In this document: in pieces, positions 1-15,280 of the stretch
Position numbering within the stretch: the stretch's first letter is position 1
Layout of the letters: every line of letters begins with the position of its first letter
Source: a virus
UHGV virus genome: UHGV-1722906
Strand: one strand, 5' to 3'
Length of the DNA stretch: 19,959 bases
Notes under the pieces: generated by a model
Told to the model about the DNA's origin: nothing
Seen by the model: only the letters and a program-made list of their open reading frames with translations
Database searches by the model: none
Position numbers and translations under genes: made by a program

Positions 1-306
1 GATAACAACTTTATCACCTGCCATTGCAATAATGGTTGCAGCCGATGCAGCAATACCATCAATATAAACTGTAATATTAGCCTTATGACGTTTTAATGAA
101 GAAAGAATAGCTTGAGCTGTAAAAACAGAACCACCATAACTATTAATTTTTACGTTGATAGCATTTGATGAAATATCCTTTAATTTATTAACTATGTCAG
201 AAGAAGAAACCTCATCAAATTCACCAATATACCCGTATATTAAAAGCTCAGCCGGAGTGTCATCTTCACCCGTGCTATTTTTTATTTCCCACCAATTAGG
301 CATCAT
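1..306 (-). CDS. Prohead maturation protease, ClpP/S49-like (partial; gene runs past the window start)
   Basis: Minus-strand frame open from ATGATG at 306-301 to the window edge, not in the ORF track because it has no stop. My translation reads MMPNWWEIKNSTGEDDTPAELLIYGYIGEF...INSYGGSVFTAQAILSSL...VYIDGIAASAATIIAMAGDK, which resembles the ClpP/S49 INSPGG and active-site serine regions. It overlaps the portal stop, as head genes typically do. Confidence 0.7.
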   Translation of the reverse strand, partial: MMPNWWEIKNSTGEDDTPAELLIYGYIGEFDEVSSSDIVNKLKDISSNAINVKINSYGGSVFTAQAILSSLKRHKANITVYIDGIAASAATIIAMAGDKVVI

Positions 307-1870
307 CAGTCTCCATATTTTGTTCATTTACCTCAGAAACAGGAGGATTAATAAGCCCCAACTCACGGCGAGCATTCTCTTCTCTGCCACAAATTTGTGC
401 GGTTTCTTCCCAGTTAAGACCTGACATTTCAGCCGCTTCCTTTTCACGGGTAGAGAATGTTTCCTCAACACGCAGTTTTGCAGCTTTGACTTCTTTAAGG
501 GGATCTAATTGGCCTTGTGATGGGCCATACCATTGAGCGCCACTCCATGCAGCGCGATATTCAGGCCCATAAAAAAAACCAGGGGCAATAACACGACCTT
601 TAGCCACGGCTTCGGCCAACCATTCCTCATAGATCGGTTGGCAAAATGACTGAACCATCCAGTCACGTCGCATACGGAACATTTTCCAGGCTTCAAGTAA
701 TGCGGCCCTGCTTGCGCTATAACTTGCTGTAAAATGCTTTACCAAGAGTTCGTAAGGGAGTTCTAAAGCAGCCCCAATTTGACGGCATATGGCGACAACA
801 AAACCATCAAATGCCGTATTTGGTCGCCCGGGATTTGCTGTATCTATCGACTCACCTTCACCCAAACTTACTATGGAGCCATTCCCCATTTCTTGGGTGT
901 TATCATCATGGTTATCGATCTGCTCGTACTGAGGGATACCCGATTCACCGACTGGTCCATCAGGAGCGTCTGTTTTAATAAAGACAGTAAACATCCCTGA
1001 CACAACCGCAGCAACCAATTCAGCATCGGTGTATCGTCCTAACTGCTTCAATGCTTCAATTACAGGAGCAAGGACAGGAACGCCACGGCGTTGCCCAGGC
1101 CTTTCAAAATCCTGCATGACATGCAGAATATTTCTTCTTCCTGTTTTACTCCCATATGCGGGAATACGTTCCCACTTGCGGGTTACAAAACCAGAAGTCC
1201 CGGCTGGGTGATGTTTTGCAACCCAGTACGCCACAGGCTCGCTAAATTCACCAACCTCTACGCCACCGTAAAGATTTGGTATAAAACGATCCTCTGGATT
1301 GCAAACACGATCACCTTCAATTAAATAGACGCACAAATCATATATAACACCCTTACGCTTAATAACTGGTAGCGCAGCAAATATATCGCCAGATGTTAAC
1401 GCAGATATTTGGACCAATGATTGCAATTGTCCAAAAGTACACATTCTTGATGCATCACAATTTGGAGAATCAGCCCATAATCTAAACTCACGCTCAACAT
1501 GCTTTTCCCATGCTCGCGCTTCTTCCTGCGTCATCCCCAAGAAATCGGCATCAATGTTCGCATTTAGTTTTAAACCGGAACCAACAACGTTTGTCCTGAT
1601 AGTTTTTATTGCGCCAACCGATAGCGGGTTTCCCATGAAGAGATCACGAGAACGCTCACGCAATTTATCTATATTTTTAACAATATCATCATCAGGAGAA
1701 CCAGCTTTACTAAACCAACCCCTTAATGATTTTTTATGAGTGCTTGCACCATGACGTGAATATCCAAGGTTATTAATACCTTCAAGTGCCTCTAACCGTT
1801 TTCTTGCCAAAGCTCGATTTAATGCCCTCTGAGGTGAAAACGGCGCAATAACTCGATCAAGAATATTCAT
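296..1870 (-). CDS. Phage portal protein (lambda gpB family)
   Basis: 524-aa ORF. Segments such as SYSASRAALLEAWKMFRMRR and EEWLAEAVAKGRV resemble lambda gpB as I recall it. Position between the gpW-like gene and the protease matches lambda head-gene order. Confidence 0.9.
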   Translation of the reverse strand: MNILDRVIAPFSPQRALNRALARKRLEALEGINNLGYSRHGASTHKKSLRGWFSKAGSPDDDIVKNIDKLRERSRDLFMGNPLSVGAIKTIRTNVVGSGLKLNANIDADFLGMTQEEARAWEKHVEREFRLWADSPNCDASRMCTFGQLQSLVQISALTSGDIFAALPVIKRKGVIYDLCVYLIEGDRVCNPEDRFIPNLYGGVEVGEFSEPVAYWVAKHHPAGTSGFVTRKWERIPAYGSKTGRRNILHVMQDFERPGQRRGVPVLAPVIEALKQLGRYTDAELVAAVVSGMFTVFIKTDAPDGPVGESGIPQYEQIDNHDDNTQEMGNGSIVSLGEGESIDTANPGRPNTAFDGFVVAICRQIGAALELPYELLVKHFTASYSASRAALLEAWKMFRMRRDWMVQSFCQPIYEEWLAEAVAKGRVIAPGFFYGPEYRAAWSGAQWYGPSQGQLDPLKEVKAAKLRVEETFSTREKEAAEMSGLNWEETAQICGREENARRELGLINPPVSEVNEQNMETDDA

Positions 1871-2117: not shown

Positions 2118-3974
2118 CTATATGGTTACGCCTTTACTTATAACTCTACGGCGTCTTCTACGTATACCTGACGAGTTCTGCACATACACATTACCTCGCA
2201 TTTCCTGTTCAGCAAGCCAGTCAAAATTAGGGTTCAGAATTTCCATCGCGGCAGTTGCATAGTTACGGCAATCAAGAGGCTCGTTACGCTCGTAGACTTT
2301 CACCCACTTTTCTTTTGTCTGCCCATTTTTATATTCAAATATTTTTTTCTCTGATAATAGCCCTTTAAAATAATCAGTATCATATCCTCTGTCAGAATCT
2401 AATGGAAAATGCATATAACCAGGACCAGGATCATGTAGCTTAATTCGTGCCATGATGGTCCCTTTACCATCATCAACCCCCAAATTAAACAACATAGCAC
2501 CTACACGGTTATTATTGCTTGGCTTTCCTATAAACGGTAAACCTACCCCACCACGACCTCTGATAGAGTATATTCGCCTTGATTCTCGCGGCTTAGTAAA
2601 GCGATATACCTCTGTCGTAAAATGCCCACCAGAGTCAATACAAACGGAAGAAATCTGTAATTTTCGACCGTCACGAAATGACCAGCTACGGAGTAAGTAT
2701 TCATCAAGTTGTTTCCAGACAACATCTTGTGCGGGATCGCCCGGAAATATTTTATATTCAATCCCCCATGATTCCTTACCTTTTCCCCAACCGACCAATT
2801 CACAAACTAAATACGTGTCCTGTACGTCAACACCAGCACTTAACAATAAAACATCATCTGGTAAAAACTCTTCAAACCTTATTCTGCGTTGCAACAAGTA
2901 TTCAGGATCGATATCGTCTTTAGCATCCTCTTTCCATGGCTCACCCAGCTTAAGGTTAATAAACTCCATTAATCCATTTTTATCGCGGTTTCTGGTTGCT
3001 TCCGTAAATTCTTCAACCAGCTCTGACAATGCAACCCACGGGGAGTAAAGACTGTTAATATGAAAACCAACAATACCTTTAACTCCAGTATGTTCAGCTA
3101 TCCATACCCCCTTCGCCAACCAATCAACGTCTGGTTTACCAGATCCGCGCATAATCCCGCCGCACTCACAGCACTCATATCTGGCCGTTTCCGGTAACGC
3201 CTCACCTGAATCGCTCTTATCCCATCTGACTTGCGACCATTTCATCACCTGCATGGTGCCACAACATGGGCAAGGAACATGGTAGTAACGCTGATCGGAG
3301 AGCTTAAACCACTTGTGGATTTTGCTCGTTTCCTCCAAAACAGGAGTAGAAACAAAAACTTTCTTACGATTATGAAAGTTGGTAGTACGCTGAATACCTA
3401 GTTTTAGTGGGTCGCCCTCCTGCGTCACACCGTAACGATCAATCTCATCAGCTAACAATATTCGAATTGGCCTGGATGCAAGACCTGCTGGGGAATTAGC
3501 ACCAACAAGTGCTATATATCCACCAGCGTAATGTTTCATACGTATAGTCGTGCTGGACTTTTTGGCTGCACCGCGCCCCTCTTTCCCTTCATGCAGCTTG
3601 TGTTTCAAACCAGGGGAATATTTGAACGTCGGATCAATACGCTCTTTTGAAAAAGCCTCAGCCGCCTCTACCGTTGGATAAATCATCAACTGAGGAGATG
3701 GCTCCTGATCTGCAAAGTAACCCATAACATTTAGCTGTAATTCGGATTTACCAATTTGCGAGCTACATTGCATCACTACTGTTTCTGTATCAGCGTCACC
3801 AATAACATCCATTGGTTCACGCAAATATGGCACTCGGCTTGTACGCCACGGCCCTGGCTCTGGAGACGTTCCCGGCGCTACATGACGATACTTATCAGCC
3901 CATTCGGAAACAGTTAGCCGTGATTTAGGGCGAAGCGCACGGAAAAAAGCGGTGCTCCATACTGTTTCGCCCAT
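2118..3974 (-). CDS. Terminase large subunit (lambda gpA-like)
   Basis: 618-aa ORF with a cysteine cluster HVPCPCCG...CCECGG like the lambda gpA ACPHCG region. Lies between the small terminase and gpW-like genes. Confidence 0.9.
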   Translation of the reverse strand: MGETVWSTAFFRALRPKSRLTVSEWADKYRHVAPGTSPEPGPWRTSRVPYLREPMDVIGDADTETVVMQCSSQIGKSELQLNVMGYFADQEPSPQLMIYPTVEAAEAFSKERIDPTFKYSPGLKHKLHEGKEGRGAAKKSSTTIRMKHYAGGYIALVGANSPAGLASRPIRILLADEIDRYGVTQEGDPLKLGIQRTTNFHNRKKVFVSTPVLEETSKIHKWFKLSDQRYYHVPCPCCGTMQVMKWSQVRWDKSDSGEALPETARYECCECGGIMRGSGKPDVDWLAKGVWIAEHTGVKGIVGFHINSLYSPWVALSELVEEFTEATRNRDKNGLMEFINLKLGEPWKEDAKDDIDPEYLLQRRIRFEEFLPDDVLLLSAGVDVQDTYLVCELVGWGKGKESWGIEYKIFPGDPAQDVVWKQLDEYLLRSWSFRDGRKLQISSVCIDSGGHFTTEVYRFTKPRESRRIYSIRGRGGVGLPFIGKPSNNNRVGAMLFNLGVDDGKGTIMARIKLHDPGPGYMHFPLDSDRGYDTDYFKGLLSEKKIFEYKNGQTKEKWVKVYERNEPLDCRNYATAAMEILNPNFDWLAEQEMRGNVYVQNSSGIRRRRRRVISKGVTI

Positions 3975-3979
3975 GAGGT

Positions 3980-4532
3980 TTATTCTTCCTGCTTAATAAA
4001 TCGGGATTCCTGGAGCGCCTGAAGCGCAAAATTAATCTCGTCTTCAATAATGCGTTCGATCTCCCTGGCTGTTTTGCCTTCACAACGGGGAGCTGCTCTT
4101 GGAGCAATACTAAATAAGCGGCTACGCAATTCATTAGCTGCCAGAAATGCATCATCCCTGACCGCATCTTTAGCGATGAGAGAGCCTTCCTTTTCTTCAA
4201 ATTCAAGGCGTTTCAGCTTTGCCTGATAAATTTTTTCTGCGGTCTTAGCCTTGTTGAATTGCACCGCAACACCGGAAGTACCACCAGCTAATCCGGCATC
4301 ATCAGCGGGTAACTCTGGTTGTTCCGAAGATATCCCATGCCCTCTTTTTCCGTTTTCAGCAGATACCTCACGACCAACCTGTCGGCTCGCTTCATAAGCC
4401 GCACTAGCTTTATCAAAATCCAGCTTGCCGCTTTTCAGCACTGGAATGCGACCGGAACGACAGAGCTTCGTAACCATTGCCGGAGAAATACCTTTCCGGC
4501 GGGCAAACTCTGACTTACTGACGATGGCCATT
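3980..4532 (-). CDS. Terminase small subunit with N-terminal HTH
   Basis: Track ORF 3980..4540 begins with TTG. The ATG at about 4532 (MAIVSKSEFARRKGISPAMV...) overlaps the stop of the upstream ParB-like gene as TAATG, so it is the more likely start. N-terminal helix-turn-helix and a charged coiled C-terminal half are typical of Nu1-type small terminases. Confidence 0.7.
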
Positions 4533-5121
4533 ACTTGCAACCATTAGCAAGATACTGAACAAATCCCTCATGAGTTTCATGCGCGTCGTGGTACTGACGA
4601 TAAACATCCAGCAACAATGCAATTTCCATATCCGTCGCGGGAATACGTTCTTTATCAATAGCCAGGTACTTAATTTGAACAACAGGGGAAGAATTATCGT
4701 CTTCTTCCTGCGGCTGTTCATCGCTTAACATTTCGTCAAGCTCTGCATCATTAAACCCAAGCAGATCAATATCAAAATCATCATCCATTAACGCTTTGAC
4801 TTCTTCGGCCAGAAGCTGCATATCCCAGCCAGCATTTAAGGCCAGCTTGTTATCTGCAATCCTGTAAGCCTTCTTCTGTTTTTCAGAAAGGTTACTCAAC
4901 CGAATCGCTGGAACTTTATCCATTTCCAGAATTTCGGCTGCTGCAAGCCGCCCATGCCCCGCAATCAGTTCATTCTTTTCATCGATCAGCACAGGATTAG
5001 TGAAACCGAACTCACGGATACTGTTCACCAACTGTTCAACTTGCTCATCTGAATGAGTCCGTGAATTTTTGGCGTATCTGAGCAGCTTACCGACTGGTAA
5101 ATATTCGATTTTTAGAGCCAT
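4531..5121 (-). CDS. ParB-like nuclease domain (ParB/Srx fold) protein
   Basis: 196-aa ORF with motif LIDEKNELIAGHGRLAAA, matching the GxxR box of ParB N-terminal domains. Stop overlaps the terS start. Confidence 0.75.
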   Translation of the reverse strand: MALKIEYLPVGKLLRYAKNSRTHSDEQVEQLVNSIREFGFTNPVLIDEKNELIAGHGRLAAAEILEMDKVPAIRLSNLSEKQKKAYRIADNKLALNAGWDMQLLAEEVKALMDDDFDIDLLGFNDAELDEMLSDEQPQEEDDNSSPVVQIKYLAIDKERIPATDMEIALLLDVYRQYHDAHETHEGFVQYLANGCK

Positions 5122-6414: not shown

Positions 6415-7794
6415 CTACTTAATCAACGGCCGGAAAGCCGCCAGCACATCATCAGATCGTCCGATTGTTGAACCACCAGGCAACGGCAACTCAAACTCAA
6501 AACGAACAGCTTTCTCCAGACTCGCCCAACTAAGGGAATCATCGTTAATGACGTGCAAATACCAGCTCTTACAGTTGAATATTGACCGCTTAATCCTGAA
6601 ACCATGTACACGACACAACTGCTTCACTTCATCATCAGAGTGAAACTTCTGGTAAAACCAGTGCCCCTTCCGGTACAACGCGGTAAAACCGTTATGATCA
6701 ATAAAATAAAGCCGGCTTTTGGAACTCGCCGCTTGTGTTTGCTTCAGGACTGTTTCCAGCTCTCCACGGCTACGACCAGAAAAGAATATTGACCCACCAG
6801 CTTTACACAGGCCTTTTAGAACCGTCAGAACGGACCATTCAGCCTCGACACTATCGACCGAGTTCAAAACGCTATCGCAAATCACGTAGTCGTAACGCCC
6901 TCGCGTTTTTAAGTCGTCCACCAGCGTATCAATCATCCGGTTTGTTGCGGCCCTATCCAGAGTGTTTCCAGCGCCCTTACGGCGGAAAAGCTCGAGATCA
7001 TGCAGGTTATATCCCTTTGCCCTGAGCATTCGCGCGTAGTCTCCCTGCCCCGAACCAAAATCAATTCCTCTTGGCGTCTTGGCAATGATCGGGAGGATCA
7101 ACGACTCATACAGGTTTGATTTCAGGCTGCCACCATTACGCAACCGCATAAGCTGCGCATACGTCTGGATGTATGTTGTTTTCTCCAGATGAGAATACTC
7201 AAATACACCATAAGTTTTATTCAGATAACTTTGGTATTTTTCCTTCTCAACATCAGGGATCACAAACACCGTTAGCGGTGTGCGCGTCATCTTCGCTGCT
7301 AATGCATACTGAGCACAGTGAATAACCTCGCCAGACTGAGTAGCAACACAACCACCCCACGGACCATACTTGATAACCAGTTCCGCTATGTTCTTTCGAA
7401 CATATGCCATTTTCGCGCGCATATTGCCTGAGATCTGGCTTGCCGATACCTGAACAAAACCATGCTTATCTTCCAGACCGGACACCCTGCAACGCTCATC
7501 TCCGCTATCAAAATCCGTTCCGTTATGCAGTTGGTTAAACCGTACTTCGTCGTATACCGTCGTTTCACAGGGCAACACATACACCGCAGCACGCGTTATT
7601 CCCAACTTACGTAGCGCCTTCGTCCTTTGGTGTCCCGCCACCAGCAAATCGCCGCGCACTATCAATGGCTTCACAAGCCCCAGCTCCCTGACGCTTTCCG
7701 CCAGCCTCGCAAGATCATCCTCACCGATAAAACGCGGGTTATATTCCGCGCCACGTAGGTGCGTTATGTCGTAATTGAGGTGAAGCATCAGCAC
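6415..7794 (-). CDS. ParB-like N-terminal domain fused to a class I SAM-dependent methyltransferase
   Basis: 459-aa ORF. N-terminus has LLVAGHQRTKALRKLG (ParB/Srx box). Centre has GIDFGSGQGDYARML, a glycine-rich SAM-binding motif I. I could find no DPPY/NPPY or PCQ motif, so the substrate is uncertain. Overlaps the upstream ParB gene by 7 nt. Confidence 0.75.
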   Translation of the reverse strand: MLMLHLNYDITHLRGAEYNPRFIGEDDLARLAESVRELGLVKPLIVRGDLLVAGHQRTKALRKLGITRAAVYVLPCETTVYDEVRFNQLHNGTDFDSGDERCRVSGLEDKHGFVQVSASQISGNMRAKMAYVRKNIAELVIKYGPWGGCVATQSGEVIHCAQYALAAKMTRTPLTVFVIPDVEKEKYQSYLNKTYGVFEYSHLEKTTYIQTYAQLMRLRNGGSLKSNLYESLILPIIAKTPRGIDFGSGQGDYARMLRAKGYNLHDLELFRRKGAGNTLDRAATNRMIDTLVDDLKTRGRYDYVICDSVLNSVDSVEAEWSVLTVLKGLCKAGGSIFFSGRSRGELETVLKQTQAASSKSRLYFIDHNGFTALYRKGHWFYQKFHSDDEVKQLCRVHGFRIKRSIFNCKSWYLHVINDDSLSWASLEKAVRFEFELPLPGGSTIGRSDDVLAAFRPLIK

Positions 7795-8411
7795 ACCTCC
7801 CCAGCCAGCAATGCGGATACAAATCCGATATAGCTGCCATTATCATCAACATAACGAGACACCGCGCAGTCAAAACGATCCGCTTCCTCATCCGTTGCCG
7901 GGATTTTATGACCTCCAAATGACAGGTACTGAACTTTTACGCCTGATTTGGCCTCATCCTTCTCAAATGGGATATCCATACCCTCTGTGTCATCGTAGAC
8001 CGCCGCACTCAATAAGTTATCCAGTTCGCGCTGAGTAAAACCAATTGAGTCCAGAGCAAAATCATCGGCCGCAAGATCTGCAAGCTCCGCGCTTAACAAC
8101 TCTTCATCCCAACCAGCATTCAGCGGAATACGGTTGTCGGCCAGACGATATGCCTTCTTCTGATTCTCCGTTAGCCCAGCCAGAACAATGCAGGGAACAT
8201 CATCCATCCCCAACTGAGTGGCCGCAGCAATTCGACCATGACCAGCAATTACAACGTTGTTCTCGTCTATCAGGATCGGATTAGTCCATCCGTACTCCTG
8301 TATGCTGGCAACAATCTGATCTACCTGCTCCACGGAGTGTGTGCGAGCGTTCTTTTCATAACCAATCAACACAGAAAGTGGTAAAGAAACCACATTAAGA
8401 TGTTTTGTCAT
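7788..8411 (-). CDS. ParB-like nuclease domain protein (paralog of 4531..5121)
   Basis: 207-aa ORF with motif LIDENNVVIAGHGRIAAA. Colinear with the 196-aa protein through shared blocks such as KNxRTHSxEQV, TENQKKAYRxADN and LNAGWD. Confidence 0.75.
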   Translation of the reverse strand: MTKHLNVVSLPLSVLIGYEKNARTHSVEQVDQIVASIQEYGWTNPILIDENNVVIAGHGRIAAATQLGMDDVPCIVLAGLTENQKKAYRLADNRIPLNAGWDEELLSAELADLAADDFALDSIGFTQRELDNLLSAAVYDDTEGMDIPFEKDEAKSGVKVQYLSFGGHKIPATDEEADRFDCAVSRYVDDNGSYIGFVSALLAGEVC

Positions 8412-10194: not shown

Positions 10195-10460
10195 TCATCA
10201 TCTCCTGCCGCACATACAACCTCACAAAAAACATCAGCGGAATGTTTCTCCTTGAACGAATGACGCTCAAAACCGCACTCAATATCAGGCGCAAAAACAT
10301 CCACCACATACGGTCTTTCAGAATGTTGGTTTTCCCAACGATAAACCGTAGTGACGTTGAAATGTTTTAACGCTTCACGGAACTCAACGCTGCCCGTCAG
10401 GTTTTTTGAGGTCAGGTATTGCAGGAGGTTTTTTACTACTTCACGGTCTTGTACTTTCAT
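10191..10460 (-). CDS. Hypothetical protein (89 aa)
   Basis: ORF downstream of an AT-rich promoter-like stretch (about 10540-10580), overlapping the next ORF by 4 nt. Confidence 0.5.
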   Translation of the reverse strand: MKVQDREVVKNLLQYLTSKNLTGSVEFREALKHFNVTTVYRWENQHSERPYVVDVFAPDIECGFERHSFKEKHSADVFCEVVCAAGDDE

Positions 10461-10581
10461 CGGGTTATCTCCGGTTTAACCAGGGCGGGTATCGCTCGGT
10501 TTCGGGTATAACCTTAGGAAATTTTTTCCCACCTGTAAAGCATTTTTTATATAAATATATAATTATATAATTCTATGAGCA

Positions 10582-10608
10582 CAAAAAAGCCCCTTTGCAA
10601 CAGGGGCT
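10582..10608 (-). terminator. Rho-independent terminator of the higBA operon
   Basis: Hairpin AGCCCCT-GTTGCAA-AGGGGCT followed by UUUUUU on the minus strand, 16 nt after the higA stop. Confidence 0.6.
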
Positions 10609-10623
10609 TATCATTCGTTCTGA

Positions 10624-10923
10624 TCAGATGTTAAACGCTATTCGTTTTCCTGTGGGAAGCTCAACATCCAGGCTTAATTTGCCTCCCATAGCTTCAACGT
10701 AACGCTTTAATGTCGCCAGCTTTAAATCATTTCCGCGCTGCTCCAGCTTTGTTACTGCTGGCTGGCTTATACCCATCGCCTCAGCAACCTGTTTTTGTGA
10801 TAACTGGAGTTCTTCACGCATCATCTGCAAGCCGACCTCAAGAATCATCTCATCTGCCATTTCTTTAATTCGCGCCTGGCTTTCAGGTGAACGGCTGGCA
10901 ATCACCTCATCTAATGTTCTCAT
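10624..10923 (-). CDS. higA: HigA-type antitoxin (XRE-family HTH)
   Basis: 99-aa ORF with HTH segment LSQKQVAEAMGISQPAVTKLEQ. Lies downstream of, and overlapping by 1 nt, a RelE/ParE-like toxin gene; toxin-first order is the HigBA pattern. Confidence 0.8.
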   Translation of the reverse strand: MRTLDEVIASRSPESQARIKEMADEMILEVGLQMMREELQLSQKQVAEAMGISQPAVTKLEQRGNDLKLATLKRYVEAMGGKLSLDVELPTGKRIAFNI

Positions 10924-11276
10924 TACTTGCTCTCCAGTGTGTTCAGATGTGCTGCAAACTCATCCTCAGCTATACGCACCAGTTTTTCATAAAACCGTTT
11001 ATCGTTACTTTTGTCTCCTGCACAAAGAACGATGGCCCGGCGAATCGGATCGAACGCATAAAAGGCTCTTATCGGACGGCCAGAAAACTGAACGCGAAGC
11101 TCTTTCATATTTTTGTACCGAGAACCTTTTACGGTATCGGCATATGGCCTGGGTAACTCAGGTCCGTAAACCTGTAGCTTTTTCAAATCAGCCAAAACCT
11201 TTTCCTGAAGAGCGTCTTCTTGCTCATTTAGCCAGTCGTCAAATCGCTGGCTAAAAAGTACCGTCCACATGCTCAA
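10923..11276 (-). CDS. higB: HigB-type toxin (RelE/ParE superfamily, addiction-module killer protein)
   Basis: 117-aa ORF (MSMWTVLFSQRFDDWL...LRVQFSGRPIRAFYAF...) resembling the HigB/Gp49-like killer family, encoded upstream of its antitoxin. Confidence 0.75.
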   Translation of the reverse strand: MSMWTVLFSQRFDDWLNEQEDALQEKVLADLKKLQVYGPELPRPYADTVKGSRYKNMKELRVQFSGRPIRAFYAFDPIRRAIVLCAGDKSNDKRFYEKLVRIAEDEFAAHLNTLESK

Positions 11277-11280
11277 TCCT

Positions 11281-11330
11281 ATAACCTGTAGTTTATATCA
11301 CTAACTATATAACCTGTGGGTTATAATTTC
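11281..11330. promoter_or_regulatory. higBA promoter/operator with palindromes
   Basis: Immediately upstream of the higB start: inverted repeat TATAACC-tgtg-GGTTATA at about 11308-11327 and a related copy ATAACCTGTAGTTTAT at 11281-11296. Typical antitoxin operator layout. Confidence 0.5.
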
Positions 11331-11514
11331 AAGAAAAACGGGGCTATTTAACATAATGGACGTTATCGGCACCACCGGATCACCGTTCATTGTCGGATCT
11401 AAAAAATCCGCTCAAAAGATCATGTTTTCCTGGGCGTTTTCCACCGTTTTTTATGTTGCTTATTTGTTAATGAAATCTCGTTTTCAGTTTCGCCTCATTT
11501 TCGACGCGAAAGCC

Positions 11515-11805
11515 CTATTTTTGTGACTTTACTCCTGGCATATGGACTTCCCAGCGACGAATCCCCATAGCTGCGCAAAAATCAGCCACATAATTCAATC
11601 CCGCCCATTCGCGGATACCACCACGGGCTTTTTCAATGAAAACGGCAATCCCTTTTTTATTGAGAGCAAAAAGCCGCCAGCTTTTTGTCACTTCGTCCTG
11701 GGTAGCCACAACACAAGTGAAAGCTCCCATGCGATACAGGTCCAAGAACTCTTTGCGTGTTTTGCGTACAAGTTCCATAACAAACCTCATATTTGCATGT
11801 TTCAA
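11515..11805 (-). CDS. Hypothetical protein (96 aa)
   Basis: ORF overlapping the upstream HTH gene by 4 nt (ATGA). No recognised motif. Confidence 0.5.
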   Translation of the reverse strand: MKHANMRFVMELVRKTRKEFLDLYRMGAFTCVVATQDEVTKSWRLFALNKKGIAVFIEKARGGIREWAGLNYVADFCAAMGIRRWEVHMPGVKSQK

Positions 11806-12101
11806 ACATCTGTTTTGTTATCAATGAAGATTAACCCTAACCCAGCGAAGTAACACAGCAGCGCCCAGGCTGCATACGGAATGCTGGATCTGGATGTGGA
11901 CTCCTTTAACATCTGCCAATTGCGAACATTGCGACTATCTTTTAAGCCAAGTTTTTTGGCCAACTGCGAGCCGCTCATTCCGGTCAGGCCAATGACTGCC
12001 CGAACTTCTCCACATGTAGGAGACTCCCATTCATCCGCTTTTTTTAAACAAGCCGGATTCAACATTTTTAAAACAGTATCTTTATCCATAACCATCTCCA
12101 T
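11802..12101 (-). CDS. HTH DNA-binding protein with C-terminal hydrophobic segment (99 aa)
   Basis: Helix-turn-helix-like stretch LTGMSGSQLAKKLGLKDSRNVRNW and hydrophobic tail IPYAAWALLCYFAGLGLIFI. Palindromic operator upstream. Confidence 0.55.
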   Translation of the reverse strand: MEMVMDKDTVLKMLNPACLKKADEWESPTCGEVRAVIGLTGMSGSQLAKKLGLKDSRNVRNWQMLKESTSRSSIPYAAWALLCYFAGLGLIFIDNKTDV

Positions 12102-12129
12102 TTATTATATCTACGATGGTAGGAAATCT

Positions 12130-12146
12130 TTTCCTATGTGGCAATA
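12130..12146. promoter_or_regulatory. Palindromic operator candidate TAGGAAA-tct-TTTCCTA, with a third TAGGAAA half-site near 12200
   Basis: Perfect 7-bp inverted repeat 29-45 nt upstream of the HTH gene start; likely autoregulatory site. Confidence 0.4.
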
Positions 12147-12479
12147 GAAATTTACTACATTGCGTATAAGACAACTTTTCTATGTCTAATAGGAAATGAT
12201 GTTTCTTACGTTTTATCGCGTTCTGATGGCTACTGTGTGCGTATTTATCGACGTTTATTGATAAGGCTCCCCCTTCCTCCTGCAAAGCCCGGCCGTAGGC
12301 CTTATTTCGTCCTTATATAAATTGATTTTGTATAGTTCGAAACGTGCCGTTTCGAAAAGGATGATCAGGCTACTCCATGCCTCCGGCAAGTGCCGGAGGA
12401 GGTATATTTGAGCGTAGCGACTCGAACCGGCGCGAGCTTTAGCTCGCTGCAAGGGCGAACATATTCACAGGCAAAGCCT

Positions 12480-12731
12480 GCGTAAGTTAAATAAAGAAAG
12501 TTTTAATAAAAGAAAGTGATTTTGCATTTATTTGTTTAGTGCATCTATTATAAAAAACCATTTGCATATACATATCAAAACTGTGGATAACTTGATTAGT
12601 TGATACCTGTAAAGGCGATATTTTTGCTGAGTTCAGGTTTAGAGAAAATTAATTTAGCTTGTTTTTTGAACAGCTATTTTTTTGCGACGTAGATAATCCT
12701 CCGGTAAAACCGGATTCATCATTCAGGTGAG
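12480..12731. other. Candidate plasmid origin (IncFII oriR-like): AT-rich region plus a consensus DnaA box
   Basis: TGTGGATAA (reverse complement of TTATCCACA) at 12582-12590, about 145 bp downstream of the repA stop, next to an AT-rich stretch at 12480-12580. This matches the known repA-then-ori layout of IncFII replicons. Confidence 0.55.
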
Positions 12732-13580
12732 TTAATGTTGGAGTGATTTCCAGGTCTTTCTTAGCCTGTTATAACGCTGCTCAACGAGGGATCGTAAATA
12801 TGCAAGGTCAGCACCAGGATACATGCCATCAGCAAATTCCTGGCTAACCTCTCTAGTGATTTGATGACGAAGTTCGGCCTCTCCCTTTTCCTGAACAAGA
12901 CGCGCAGCTCTCTCCGCTGCTTTCTGTTTTGCCTTTATCTCTCTGGCCGTCTTCCTCTGACGCCATACATTCTCCATCTGCTCCTGAATAACAATACGCT
13001 TATAATCAGCCTCCGTTATCGCTTTTTTAAGCCGTTCGCTATTCTTCGCATTGAAGTAATTAAGTTTCTGGCTAACCGCACGTCTCCATGCTTGTTCAGT
13101 AATACCAACGGTTTCCAGCAGTTGATCACGAATCTCTATTTTCGCTGGCCAATACTGTTTATTCACCCGATCCCAGCGACGTTCATAATCAATAAAACCT
13201 AACGCTTTCAGTTGCGACAACGCCCTTGTACAGCGCGTTATAGACTTGTTCCCAGCTTCGGATACGGTAGACAGGCCGCAAAAATCAGCCAACGCCTCAG
13301 CACTAGCCAGAACCCGCTTAGAAATGATGTTTACATGGTGCAAAATCGCAGCGATCACAGCATTAATCGCCCGACGACGATGCTCGTTTATCCGGCGCTT
13401 CCGCTCTGACGGTTGATTAACGTAGAACGCAACCTCACACGTAAGATCACGCCCATTAATGCGCTGTAAAGCATCAGATAACACCAGCGGCAGCTTGTGC
13501 GTATGGTGCTTTGGAGGCTGGAACTCCGGCGACAAATTACAAACGTAAGCTGAACGTAGAGACGGCATTGGTCTATCCAT
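12732..13580 (-). CDS. repA: Plasmid replication initiator RepA (IncFII RepA1 family)
   Basis: From the ATG at 13580 (MDRPMPSLRS...) the protein is 283 aa and aligns by eye with R100/R1 RepA1 as I recall it, with RRRAINAVIAAI at the same residue positions as RRRAIDALLQGL and SITRCTRALSQLKALGFIDY against SITRATRALTFLSELGLITY. The track ORF extends to 13709, but those 43 extra codons overlie a terminator hairpin and are probably leader, not protein. Confidence 0.85.
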   Translation of the reverse strand: MDRPMPSLRSAYVCNLSPEFQPPKHHTHKLPLVLSDALQRINGRDLTCEVAFYVNQPSERKRRINEHRRRAINAVIAAILHHVNIISKRVLASAEALADFCGLSTVSEAGNKSITRCTRALSQLKALGFIDYERRWDRVNKQYWPAKIEIRDQLLETVGITEQAWRRAVSQKLNYFNAKNSERLKKAITEADYKRIVIQEQMENVWRQRKTAREIKAKQKAAERAARLVQEKGEAELRHQITREVSQEFADGMYPGADLAYLRSLVEQRYNRLRKTWKSLQH

Positions 13581-13589
13581 ATGTTCGCT

Positions 13590-13702
13590 CTTGCGTCCAC
13601 GGAAAACCAACGTATAATGGGAGTTGTCGAGGCGCCCATGGTTAATTGTTGGTTTTCCGTGGATGTCGCAAGAAGCCCGCAGATTTATCTGCGGGCTTTT
13701 TG
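13590..13702 (+). ncRNA. Candidate CopA-like antisense (countertranscript) RNA over the repA leader
   Basis: Plus-strand promoter-like TTGCGT-16-TATAAT (about 13591-13618), a long imperfect inverted repeat (13598-13615 with 13646-13663), and a perfect terminator hairpin AGCCCGCAG-ATTTA-CTGCGGGCT plus TTTTT (13674-13702). It is antisense to the repA 5' region and nothing on the plus strand is coding here. Confidence 0.4.
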
Positions 13703-13890
13703 TTTCCATATCTGGTCACTTTCCAACCAGACACCCACAATCATAACCACGTTACGTGGTTTTAAGAGAACTCTACCACAACACTTTCGGTCATGCACGA
13801 AGTCTCTCACTGATCGAACGATAATCCACCAGTAAAAGGATCTAAATTGGATCTCGTTTTGCGAGCATCATACTACTGGCCTAACTCCAG

Positions 13891-14445
13891 TCAATGATTC
13901 CCAGCCGGAAACCTGCGGTAAAGCGTGGATAAGGTAACATCGAAGATAATCGCTATCCGCTTACGTGAAACACCATTCGCAATAAGCCTTCCGATCTGTT
14001 CCCATTGCTCTGGTGCCAGCTTTGAGCGACGTCCTCCTATCCTGCCGTTAGCCCTTGCCACCGCCAATCCTGCACGCGTTCTTTCAATCATATTTTCCCG
14101 CTCCATCTCTGCGACTGCACTCAGCATCGTGTAGGCAAAGCGGCCAATTGAAGTGCTAATTTTTATCCCTTCCGTAATCGAAATAAACTCAATGTTGTTT
14201 GATAAAAAATGGTTAAGTAAATCAACAAGATGAATCAGAGAACGCCCCATTCGGTCCAGCTTCCAGACAATAACCGTATCGCCCGGCCGTAGCACCTTAA
14301 GTAGCTTATCAAGCCCTGGCCGTTTTGATTTAGCACCGGATATTTTATCTTCAAAAATCCGGTCACATCCTGAACTCCTGAGCGCCTCCAGTTGTAATTC
14401 CAAATTCTGGTCAAAAGTTGACACCCTCGCATAACCATATTGCAT
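13891..14445 (-). CDS. pin: DNA invertase, serine recombinase of the Pin/Gin/Hin/Cin family
   Basis: 184-aa ORF with N-terminal catalytic motif GYARVSTFDQ and a C-terminal HTH (IAIIFDVTLSTLYRRFP) like the Hin/Pin DNA-binding domain. Sits next to inverted tail-fibre cassettes. Confidence 0.9.
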   Translation of the reverse strand: MQYGYARVSTFDQNLELQLEALRSSGCDRIFEDKISGAKSKRPGLDKLLKVLRPGDTVIVWKLDRMGRSLIHLVDLLNHFLSNNIEFISITEGIKISTSIGRFAYTMLSAVAEMERENMIERTRAGLAVARANGRIGGRRSKLAPEQWEQIGRLIANGVSRKRIAIIFDVTLSTLYRRFPAGNH

Positions 14446-14510
14446 ACTTTCTAAACCGCGATTGTTGCTAAAAGCGGGAAAAAATATCGTTCAGACGACA
14501 CAGAGGCAAT

Positions 14511-14536
14511 TCGCAAAAACCTCGGTTTGCAGGAAA
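14511..14536. other. gix/pix-like 26-bp site A (extra site between pin and the functional left site)
   Basis: Reverse complement reads TTCCTGCAAACC-GA-GGTTTTTGCGAA. Its left half and inner flank are identical to the right site and the start of the expressed variable segment. Core is 49 bp from site B, so out of frame with it. Confidence 0.5.
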
Positions 14537-14558
14537 CGGTAAATCAGGCTTGCCGCCG

Positions 14559-14584
14559 TTATCGAATACCTCGGTTTACGAGAA
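14559..14584. other. Left crossover site B at the start of the silent Sv' cassette
   Basis: Reverse complement reads TTCTCGTAAACC-GA-GGTATTCGATAA; the outer half and about 21 bp of flank (encoding AAVIEY) are identical to the constant side of site R. Confidence 0.65.
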
Positions 14585-15280
14585 CTCGGCACAAGCGGGG
14601 AAAAAATACCGTTACTCAGTACGGCGAATACCTGGACCAATCGACAAACATTCAGTGGTGGCCTTTCTGGGGAACTGTCCGGCAATGCCGCTACTGCAAC
14701 AAAGCTGAAAACAGCACGAAAAATTGCTGGAGTTGGTTTTGATGGTTCTAGCGATATTTCAATTAGTGCCAAAAATGTCAATGCATTTGCACTCCGACAA
14801 ACAGGTAATACTGTTAATGGTGATACTTCCGTTGGATGGAATTGGGATAGTGGTGCATATAACGCCATGATTGGTGGCGCATCTGCATTAATTCTTCACT
14901 TTAATATAAATGCTGGTAGCTGTCCTGCCGTACAATTCCGTGTGAATTATAAAAATGGTGGCATTTCCTACAGGTCAGCTCGTGATGGTTATGGATTTGA
15001 ATTAGGTTGGTCAGATTTCTATACCACGACACGAAAACCATCAGCGGGAGATGTTGGCGCATATACTAAAGCGGAATGTAATTCACGTTTTATTACAGGT
15101 GTTCGTTTAGGAGGCCTGTCATCTGTTCAAACATGGAATGGGCCTGGTTGGTCTGATAAGTCAGGTTATGTCGTTACGGGTTCAGTTAACGGAAACCGTG
15201 ATGAATTAATTGATACAACTCAGGCAAGGCCAATTCAGTATTGCATCAATGGAACGTGGTATAACGCGGGGAGTATTTAA
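14561..15280 (+). CDS. Alternative tail-fibre C-terminal cassette (Sv'-like); promoterless, no start codon, expressed only after inversion
   Basis: Frame open from site B to the stop at 15280 per the track frame (track ORF 14867..15280 is its first in-frame ATG). Translates to ...LGLRELGTSGEKIPLLSTANTW...HFNINAGSCPAVQFRVNYKNGG...IQYCINGTWYNAGSI, a typical side-tail-fibre C-terminal domain. Confidence 0.75.
   Translation: MEYLGLRELGTSGEKIPLLSTANTWTNRQTFSGGLSGELSGNAATATKLKTARKIAGVGFDGSSDISISAKNVNAFALRQTGNTVNGDTSVGWNWDSGAYNAMIGGASALILHFNINAGSCPAVQFRVNYKNGGISYRSARDGYGFELGWSDFYTTTRKPSAGDVGAYTKAECNSRFITGVRLGGLSSVQTWNGPGWSDKSGYVVTGSVNGNRDELIDTTQARPIQYCINGTWYNAGSI

Follow-up and report, generated by a model that had tools for sequence, protein, structure and literature searches.

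The 19,959-nucleotide stretch of viral DNA analysed here (UHGV virus genome UHGV-1722906; hereafter the window) combines a plasmid-replication module, made up of a repA gene and an origin, with portal, terminase, tail-fibre and tail-assembly genes. We conclude that this module is very probably the plasmid-maintenance replicon of a family of approximately 48-kb, myovirus-type phage-plasmids of Escherichia coli and its relatives. The replicon is flanked by the invertase and tail fibre of a tail-fibre switch on one side and by terminase and portal genes on the other, all on the minus strand, which holds nearly all real genes of the window (coordinates in Table 1). An original prediction, made from the letters alone, had described this arrangement and proposed a phage-plasmid or, alternatively, a prophage that captured a plasmid replicon. 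The layout and the single orientation stand, but the adjacency to the head genes belongs to a deleted copy only, because 15.3 kb are missing from the window.

Among 5,426 complete E. coli genomes, 71 (approximately 1.3%) contain the replicon region, and all 82 places at which it occurs are plasmid-borne, with none in a chromosome. The carrier plasmids are circular, measure approximately 47 to 51 kb, and match the replicon at 98% to 99.9% identity; they include those of several independent assemblies of ATCC 25922. In PLSDB, the 2.4-kb replicon region is 97.8% to 99.5% identical to at least 25 plasmids of approximately 46 to 52 kb, plus outliers of 32 and 94 kb, from E. coli, E. albertii, E. 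fergusonii, and Klebsiella aerogenes; 70 of the 71 matching records are predicted to be non-mobilizable. The family was seen also in Klebsiella, Salmonella, E. albertii, and E. fergusonii. On the phage side, the Yersinia phages vB_YpM_39, vB_YpM_41, and vB_YpM_44 (OR545053-55; listed host Y. pestis EV76-CN) carry a replicon 98.4% to 99.9% identical to that of the window. Their GenBank records alone constitute the virion evidence for the family, and a literature search found no paper on these phages.

In a full-length representative, pESBL3215 (NZ_MW390530; 49,148 bp), the head, tail, and lysis modules are all complete; it also has a ParA-like gene, a CI-like repressor, and an anti-repressor, and no integrase. 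pESBL3215, the 48,488-bp ATCC 25922 plasmid (NZ_CP009073), and the 3 vB_YpM phages are members of the same family, with 98.3% to 99.9% identity over the 2.4-kb replicon region. They share with the window the gene order tail fibre-invertase-repA-origin-toxin-antitoxin, and at 48 to 49 kb they retain the 15.3 kb that is absent from it. The order tail fibre to repA recurs even in relatives with only 60% RepA identity. For the family, the phage-plasmid proposal is thus borne out by the 82 of 82 plasmid locations and by the phage modules, ParA, and lack of an integrase in pESBL3215, whereas the proposed prophage capture found no support, with no chromosomal copy and no integrase. The original prediction had also suggested weighing partition genes against an integrase: the ParA-like gene and the missing integrase of pESBL3215 point to a plasmid, but the window itself contains no ParA. 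Profile searches of the window proteins likewise detected no integrase.

The initiator was first recognised as an open reading frame (ORF) of 325 residues (12732-13709, minus strand), and its predicted assignment to the RepA1 family held up in profile searches. It matches Pfam PF02387 (IncFII_repA) with an E-value of 1e-43 (150 bits; cutoff 22.9) and NCBIfam NF040977 (RepA_IncFII_LM) with 231.5 bits (cutoff 70), the latter over positions 1 to 266 of a 266-position model. The scores stay below the IncFII equivalog level, with 78 bits against a cutoff of 447 for TIGR03474 (incFII_RepA) and 82 against 478 for PRK13750, and canonical IncFII RepA shows 32% to 33% identity over 45% of the protein (tblastn). 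A PDB sequence search with RepA returned no match.

The sequence evidence places the true RepA start at ATG 13580 or ATG 13568 and marks the start at 13709 as an over-extension into the leader, because all profile matches (Pfam, NCBIfam, and PHROG) begin at residues 52 to 57 of the 325-residue ORF, relatives with 59% to 85% RepA identity are 274 to 284 residues long and start at the equivalent of Met48, and the upstream frame (13581-13709) contains stop codons in diverged relatives, with its nucleotides conserved. A Shine-Dalgarno (SD)-like AAGAG (13592-13588) lies 7 nt upstream of ATG 13580. RefSeq orthologues are annotated at 325 to 326 residues, reaching 43 to 47 codons into the structured non-coding leader; among family members, repA is annotated either with this excess or as a hypothetical protein only. 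A 16-nt motif, GCAAG(A/G)GCGAACATAT, spans the RepA ribosome-binding site and start (13578-13594) and recurs as an inverted copy in the origin hairpin block (12449-12465). Both copies fall in blocks conserved among relatives, and the pair could represent a RepA operator or a long-range RNA pairing.

Downstream of repA, we find the consensus DnaA box that had been predicted in an AT-rich region at the expected distance; it lies 141 nt past the repA stop and abuts the AT-rich core. A lone exact 9-mer is weak evidence by itself, and the number of DnaA boxes with one mismatch allowed is at chance level. The significance of the box comes instead from the conservation of its position and orientation, since 8 of 12 relatives, with RepA identities as low as 60%, have it in the same orientation and 122 to 141 nt past the end of repA. 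When 8 diverged sequences are aligned, the box, the ATGCA(A/C) repeats, the AT tract, and the next 210-bp block prove conserved, and the 140-nt spacer between the repA stop and the box varies freely. The repeats and the AT-rich core are candidate RepA sites and a candidate unwinding region. Beyond the core, the conserved hairpin block (12279-12490) matches no Rfam family and possibly acts as a priming signal. In plasmid R1, primase primes leading-strand synthesis at the G-site downstream of oriR, and by analogy the block could be its counterpart. The intergenic region before the 325-residue repA ORF (in window numbering) measures 630 bp. In vB_YpM_39, a 262-bp insertion resembling a miniature inverted-repeat transposable element (L001 14095-14355, at approximately window position 12190) separates the origin hairpins from the orf99 promoter. 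Bounded by 38-bp terminal inverted repeats and with TAATAGG as its target duplication, it is absent from the window; its inverted-repeat sequence also matches a site in the relative L018.

Upstream of the coding sequence, the repA promoter has a TTGACT and a TAT(G/C)AT conserved in relatives, and its -35 element overlaps the invertase stop codon. Just past the predicted transcription start is a GATCC-N6-GATCC direct repeat (13838-13853) containing 2 Dam sites, kept in most relatives. The countertranscript-like element that had been proposed over the leader also has its counterpart in our data, in a plus-strand terminator, a hairpin with covariation, and an invariant TATAAT. Both TATAAT and TTGCGT are invariant in the 8 aligned sequences, and TATAAT and TTGCAT are retained in the group-B relatives despite entirely different stems. 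The terminator has one compensatory stem pair and an invariant T-run, and the ORF list of the window contains no plus-strand gene upstream of it. The predicted countertranscript has a minimum free energy of -41.1 kcal/mol (z -6.7) and adopts the same two-hairpin fold in all homologues. For the leader hairpin and terminator in 8 distinct sequences, 96.5% of cells are paired, compared to 37% to 44% in slid controls. Compensatory changes occur at 4 pairs (12 cells), and 0 of 500 shuffles reach the covariation score, in a test with a small sample and with a structure derived from the same 8 sequences. By analogy with related replicons, we infer negative control of RepA synthesis by antisense RNA. 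The region originally delimited, 12480-13702, leaves out the promoter of repA with the greater part of the leader (13581-13894), as well as the hairpin block at 12279-12479.

The loop of stem-loop 1 (13640-13652, plus strand) is the sole indel site among family members that are otherwise 98% to 99% identical. It occurs in 3 variants: the window has that of vB_YpM_39, another is common to ATCC 25922 and most IMG/VR copies, and the loop of most family members differs from that of the window. A variable loop in this position is the pattern expected of an incompatibility (specificity) determinant. A scan of genome contigs with the conserved loop pattern gave only a chance match, in a Bacteroidales metagenome-assembled genome. 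Two sub-threshold Rfam matches to Thr_leader (32 and 21 bits; gathering threshold 55) reflect a generic hairpin plus terminator, and a snoRNA match in 11000-15000 is spurious.

How far does the replicon resemble known ones? The original prediction called it a complete IncFII-type replicon, which is right at the level of the superfamily; at the finer level, the RepA equivalog, CopA, CopB, and Tap all fail. As a control we used a canonical IncFII locus with copB, tap, and repA (L039). In common with R1/R100, RepA belongs to the same Pfam family, an ATCCGG-N6-CCGGAGG hairpin follows the repA stop, and a short two-stem-loop antisense RNA lies opposite the leader, approximately 50 to 125 nt upstream of repA. 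In the control locus, the DnaA box is located approximately 175 nt after the repA stop (141 nt here) and is likewise followed by an AT-rich region and GC-rich hairpins, but the interval between box and AT-rich core is much shorter in the window. At the nucleotide level, only the DnaA box and one 21-nt hairpin are similar to the IncFII origin. Further differences are the lack of a copB-sized ORF (the invertase stop abuts the repA promoter, with approximately 180 bp to the annotated ORF start) and the lack of a conserved tap-like leader ORF among 7 close relatives. In an Rfam search of 11000-15000 at E ≤ 1, neither CopA (RF00042), which scores 92 bits in the control locus, nor PK-repZ was found. 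Judged by its sequence, the replicon is a member of the IncFII/IncL-M superfamily and not a canonical IncFII replicon.

RepA also passes the joint RepA_IncFII_LM model, a point in common with IncL/M and I-complex (IncI1/B/K/Z) replicons, which have RepA/RepZ, Inc RNA, and an activating pseudoknot. With these, the replicon likely shares control by a small antisense RNA directed at a leader hairpin. In contrast to them, there is no Rfam match to PK-repZ or a related family and no identified pseudoknot partner, and the close group has no conserved leader ORF that terminates at the start of repA. ORFs whose final ATGA overlaps the repA start do occur in more distant relatives (L014, L015, and L019). 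In 2 relatives with 59% to 60% RepA identity, an extra 158-residue ORF (L015 5528-6004; L019 112-588) is similar to the winged-helix region of RepA, and its end overlaps the repA start as ATGA, a sign of translational coupling. The nearest plasmid RepA outside the family, with 37% identity, comes from 43.6-kb KPC-type plasmids of Enterobacter, Klebsiella, and Citrobacter (e.g., NZ_CP011575), and RepA1 of Buchnera leucine plasmids is 31% to 34% identical; both are ordinary plasmids without phage modules and were compared by RepA protein only.

Among phage-plasmids, P1/P7 and the SSU5-type elements are likewise temperate phages that exist as low-copy plasmids with replication, partition, and addiction modules, and P1, P7, and D6 have a related invertible tail-fibre segment. 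However, the backbone here, with its lambda-type terminase and portal and Mu/P2-type tail, is unrelated to that of P1/P7 and SSU5 and half the size, and the replicon type differs. Typing schemes recognise ten well-defined phage-plasmid types, all but two of approximately 95 to 120 kb, and the family described here is not among them (PMC12977533, PMC11652158). We considered and rejected 2 further candidates, the pSLy3 group (110 to 114 kb, SSU5-related, siphovirus-type) and the pseudolysogenic Yersinia phage HQ103 (an unrelated 32-kb Peduovirus).

The window maps to pESBL3215 by BLAST as 2 blocks, which lie 15.3 kb apart there. The blocks meet in a hybrid single copy of a 122-bp direct repeat, of which pESBL3215 has 3 copies (approximately 29393-29515, 38300-38418, and 44716-44838), each just upstream of an ATG. 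The missing 15.3 kb contains the anti-repressor, ParA, the CI-like repressor, primase-like and other early genes, holins, endolysin, and an MT-A70 methylase. Lysis and lysogeny-control functions are complete in full-length relatives and missing from the window. Unless the junction is artefactual, the window copy is probably a defective phage-plasmid living only as a plasmid. A second, independent defective derivative is pCREC-544_3 (L040; NZ_CP024829; 32,182 bp), a closed circular family plasmid without ParA, the CI-like repressor, and early and lysis genes, and with a split terminase gene. Since it persists without ParA, the core of RepA, origin, and toxin-antitoxin pair suffices for persistence.

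These losses also bear on a competing account, in which an intact replicon sits on a plain, non-mobilizable plasmid with silent phage structural genes and the term phage-plasmid describes ancestry only. To this we give slightly better than an even chance. It is favoured by the lack in the window of the CI-like repressor, anti-repressor, ParA, primase-like gene, holins, and endolysin, and by the existence of a 32-kb deletion derivative as a closed circular plasmid. However, the junction at 10457-10582 is present in no PLSDB record and in 0 of the 5,426 complete E. coli genomes and so may be an artefact of assembly; moreover, as regards the replicon itself, this account is compatible with maintenance of a phage-plasmid family.

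Several points count against our reading. The replicon is known here from sequence alone, and the window includes no sequence from beyond the element that would reveal the physical state of this copy. The deletion junction could be an assembly collapse across the repeat instead of a private deletion. Regarding the control unit, the antisense -35 element is weak (3 of 6 matches) and was missed by the promoter scan, and the conservation of TATAAT could reflect the structure of the sense hairpin instead. The leader contains several ORFs, none of which keeps its frame or end point across 7 close relatives, and no conserved pseudoknot partner was identified in it. Constrained folding of antisense binding frees the SD-like AAGAG and leaves the start region more paired, with inconsistent results in 2 relatives (L021 and L022). 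Finally, phage names and plasmid accessions, searched in the literature and in possibly truncated supplements, led to no description of the family.

The replicon could also be read as a lytic phage origin, with the plasmid records representing pseudolysogenic or carrier-state DNA. No O/P-type or RepL-type lytic replicase is annotated in pESBL3215, and the phage records call repA only a hypothetical protein, both of which fit such an origin. We nevertheless regard it as improbable: antisense control and a toxin-antitoxin pair typify plasmids that are stable and copy-controlled, and 71 independent complete genomes, among them those of decades-old ATCC 25922 stocks, contain the element assembled as a closed plasmid. 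In addition, the early region carries its own primase-like gene, derivatives without early and lysis genes persist, and a RepA with 63% identity (L014 6001-6852) is located beside VirB3/VirB4/TrbC of a type IV secretion system on an ordinary conjugative plasmid. Least probable is an integrated prophage with a captured, now inactive plasmid replicon: the window holds no sequence beyond the element with which integration of this copy could be directly excluded, but 0 of the 82 places in complete E. coli genomes are chromosomal, an integrase is absent from both the window and pESBL3215, and the conservation of repA, leader, and origin blocks with compensatory changes indicates purifying selection.

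Taking the replicon as that of a phage-plasmid, we propose the following mode of action, modelled in part on R1. repA would be transcribed leftward from a sigma-70 promoter abutting the invertase stop, giving a structured leader of approximately 280 nt, and the 278- to 282-residue RepA would act on the origin directly downstream. There, DnaA would help helicase loading, and priming may be signalled by the hairpins past the AT-rich core. Copy number would be set by the approximately 80-nt antisense RNA, which would start from a promoter inside the main leader hairpin, end at the strong terminator, and pair with the leader 45 to 125 nt upstream of the RepA start, lowering RepA synthesis. Inheritance would be stabilised by a HigB/HigA-like pair, plus ParA in full-length relatives. 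The 15.3 kb would have been lost by recombination between two 122-bp repeats, and the copy probably persists only as a plasmid.

The toxin and antitoxin genes follow the origin on the same strand, and the names of their RefSeq orthologues agree with these assignments. By their domains and adjacency they form a type II toxin-antitoxin pair, for which the role of addiction module suggested by the original prediction is plausible. Between this pair and the origin lie orf99 and orf96 (phrog_8351 and phrog_4595), which occupy the same position after the origin in relatives. Their promoter overlaps a palindrome, GGAAA-N3-TTTCC, that occurs twice in the window (10517-10529 and 12122-12134) against 0.04 copies expected, and 4 times in pESBL3215 (L003; 27838, 29443, 38346, and 44765) against 0.15 expected. 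Of the pESBL3215 sites, one lies at the orf99 promoter beside the origin, and each 122-bp repeat contains another. This distribution suggests a shared operator of 4 promoters, including one leading into structural genes, and the small, helix-turn-helix (HTH)-like Orf99 is perhaps the protein that acts there.

The immediate upstream neighbour of the replicon is the serine DNA invertase of the tail-fibre switch. The invertible segment is 88% to 92% identical to G, C, or P segments of Mu, D108, P1, P7, D6, SfMu, and several P2-like phages, and is far more broadly shared than the remainder of the element. Three ParB_N-domain proteins lie beside the terminase, and some phage records label them partitioning protein. 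We rejected them as partition genes, as the window offers them no ParA partner and one carries a fused methyltransferase domain; several PHROG families matching them are nucleases or DNA methyltransferases. pESBL3215 carries an IS200/IS605 element with tnpA and tnpB (47378-49067), and the equivalent site of the window (approximately 7970-7979) is uninterrupted.

Table 1. Features of the UHGV-1722906 window, in order of position
Feature	Position	Strand	Remarks
Portal, lambda-family	296-1870	-	
DUF6148 gene	between portal and terminase		
Large terminase, gpA-type	2118-3974	-	
Three ParB_N-domain proteins	4531-5121, 6415-7794, 7788-8411		beside terminase; one with fused methyltransferase domain
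Several small phage ORFs	window		
Deletion junction	10457-10582		hybrid single copy of 122-bp direct repeat; three-way alignment
HTH antitoxin	10624-10923	-	PF01381, E 3.9e-10; shares one base (10923) with toxin gene
Gp49/HigB-like RelE-family toxin	10923-11276	-	PF05973, E 5.7e-23
orf96	11515-11805	-	
orf99	11802-12101	-	weak HTH/repressor similarity
orf99-orf96 promoter	12116-12144	-	TTGCCA-17-TACCAT; promoter scan
Palindromic operator (predicted)	12122-12134		GGAAA-N3-TTTCC; overlaps orf99-orf96 promoter; conserved in relatives
Five conserved hairpins beyond AT-rich core	12279-12490		consensus fold of 47 pairs, 7 with compensatory changes
Three ATGCA(A/C) repeats	12561-12567, 12539-12544, 12521-12527	-	conserved; in AT-rich core
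AT-rich origin core	12500-12579	-	78-80% AT; blocks conserved across 7 diverged relatives
DnaA box	12582-12590	-	consensus TTATCCACA; sole exact copy in window
Hairpin, 18 nt after repA stop	12700-12714	-	TCCGG-N5-CCGGA(GG); one compensatory change in relatives
repA coding sequence	12732-13580	-	282 residues from ATG 13580 or 278 from ATG 13568
repA mRNA leader	13581-13860	-	structured, untranslated, approximately 280 nt; fold z-score -7.9; several conserved hairpins
Putative antisense promoter	13591-13618	+	within long leader hairpin; -35 TTGCGT 13591-13596, 16-nt spacer, -10 TATAAT 13613-13618
Long leader hairpin	13596-13611 / 13648-13663		16-bp perfect arms; invariant apical sequence; compensatory changes at 3 stem pairs
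Predicted countertranscript	~13625-13705	+	approximately 80 nt; 5' tail, stem-loop 1, intrinsic terminator
Intrinsic terminator	stem 13675-13696, T-run 13697-13705	+	GC-rich perfect stem; TTTTTGTTT (13675-13705)
repA promoter	13867-13894	-	-35 TTGACT 13894-13889, 16-nt spacer, -10 TATGAT 13872-13867; promoter scan 10/12
Serine DNA invertase	13891-14445	-	PF00239, E 2.6e-44; PF02796
Invertible tail-fibre segment	14831-16430		
Tail-fibre gene	beyond invertible segment		

The element belongs to known kinds, a phage-plasmid and an antisense-controlled RepA replicon, and will not surprise a specialist; nor do the findings overturn current understanding. We put forward only tentatively, as a joint claim that we rather doubt, that this is a widespread phage-plasmid lineage without a description that we could find and new in 3 respects taken together. 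First, it would have a minimal IncFII-superfamily replicon without CopB, Tap, and CopA, in which the antisense promoter lies inside its own target hairpin. Second, the antisense loop would be the incompatibility determinant, as the sole variable spot among near-identical members. Third, the window copy would be a snapshot of the transition from phage-plasmid to plain plasmid via recombination of repeated 122-bp regulatory cassettes, which would share their operator with the origin-adjacent orf99 promoter.

Phage-plasmids carry genes between phages and plasmids, and this approximately 48-kb family is common in E. coli, yet we found no published description of it. As the quality-control strain ATCC 25922 carries it, the family is readily studied and offers a good experimental system. 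Correct annotation of the RepA start, the antisense gene, and the origin would improve plasmid typing and the prediction of copy number and incompatibility. The window copy and pCREC-544_3 indicate that the replicon can carry phage remnants as a stable plasmid, which bears on how phage-plasmids decay.

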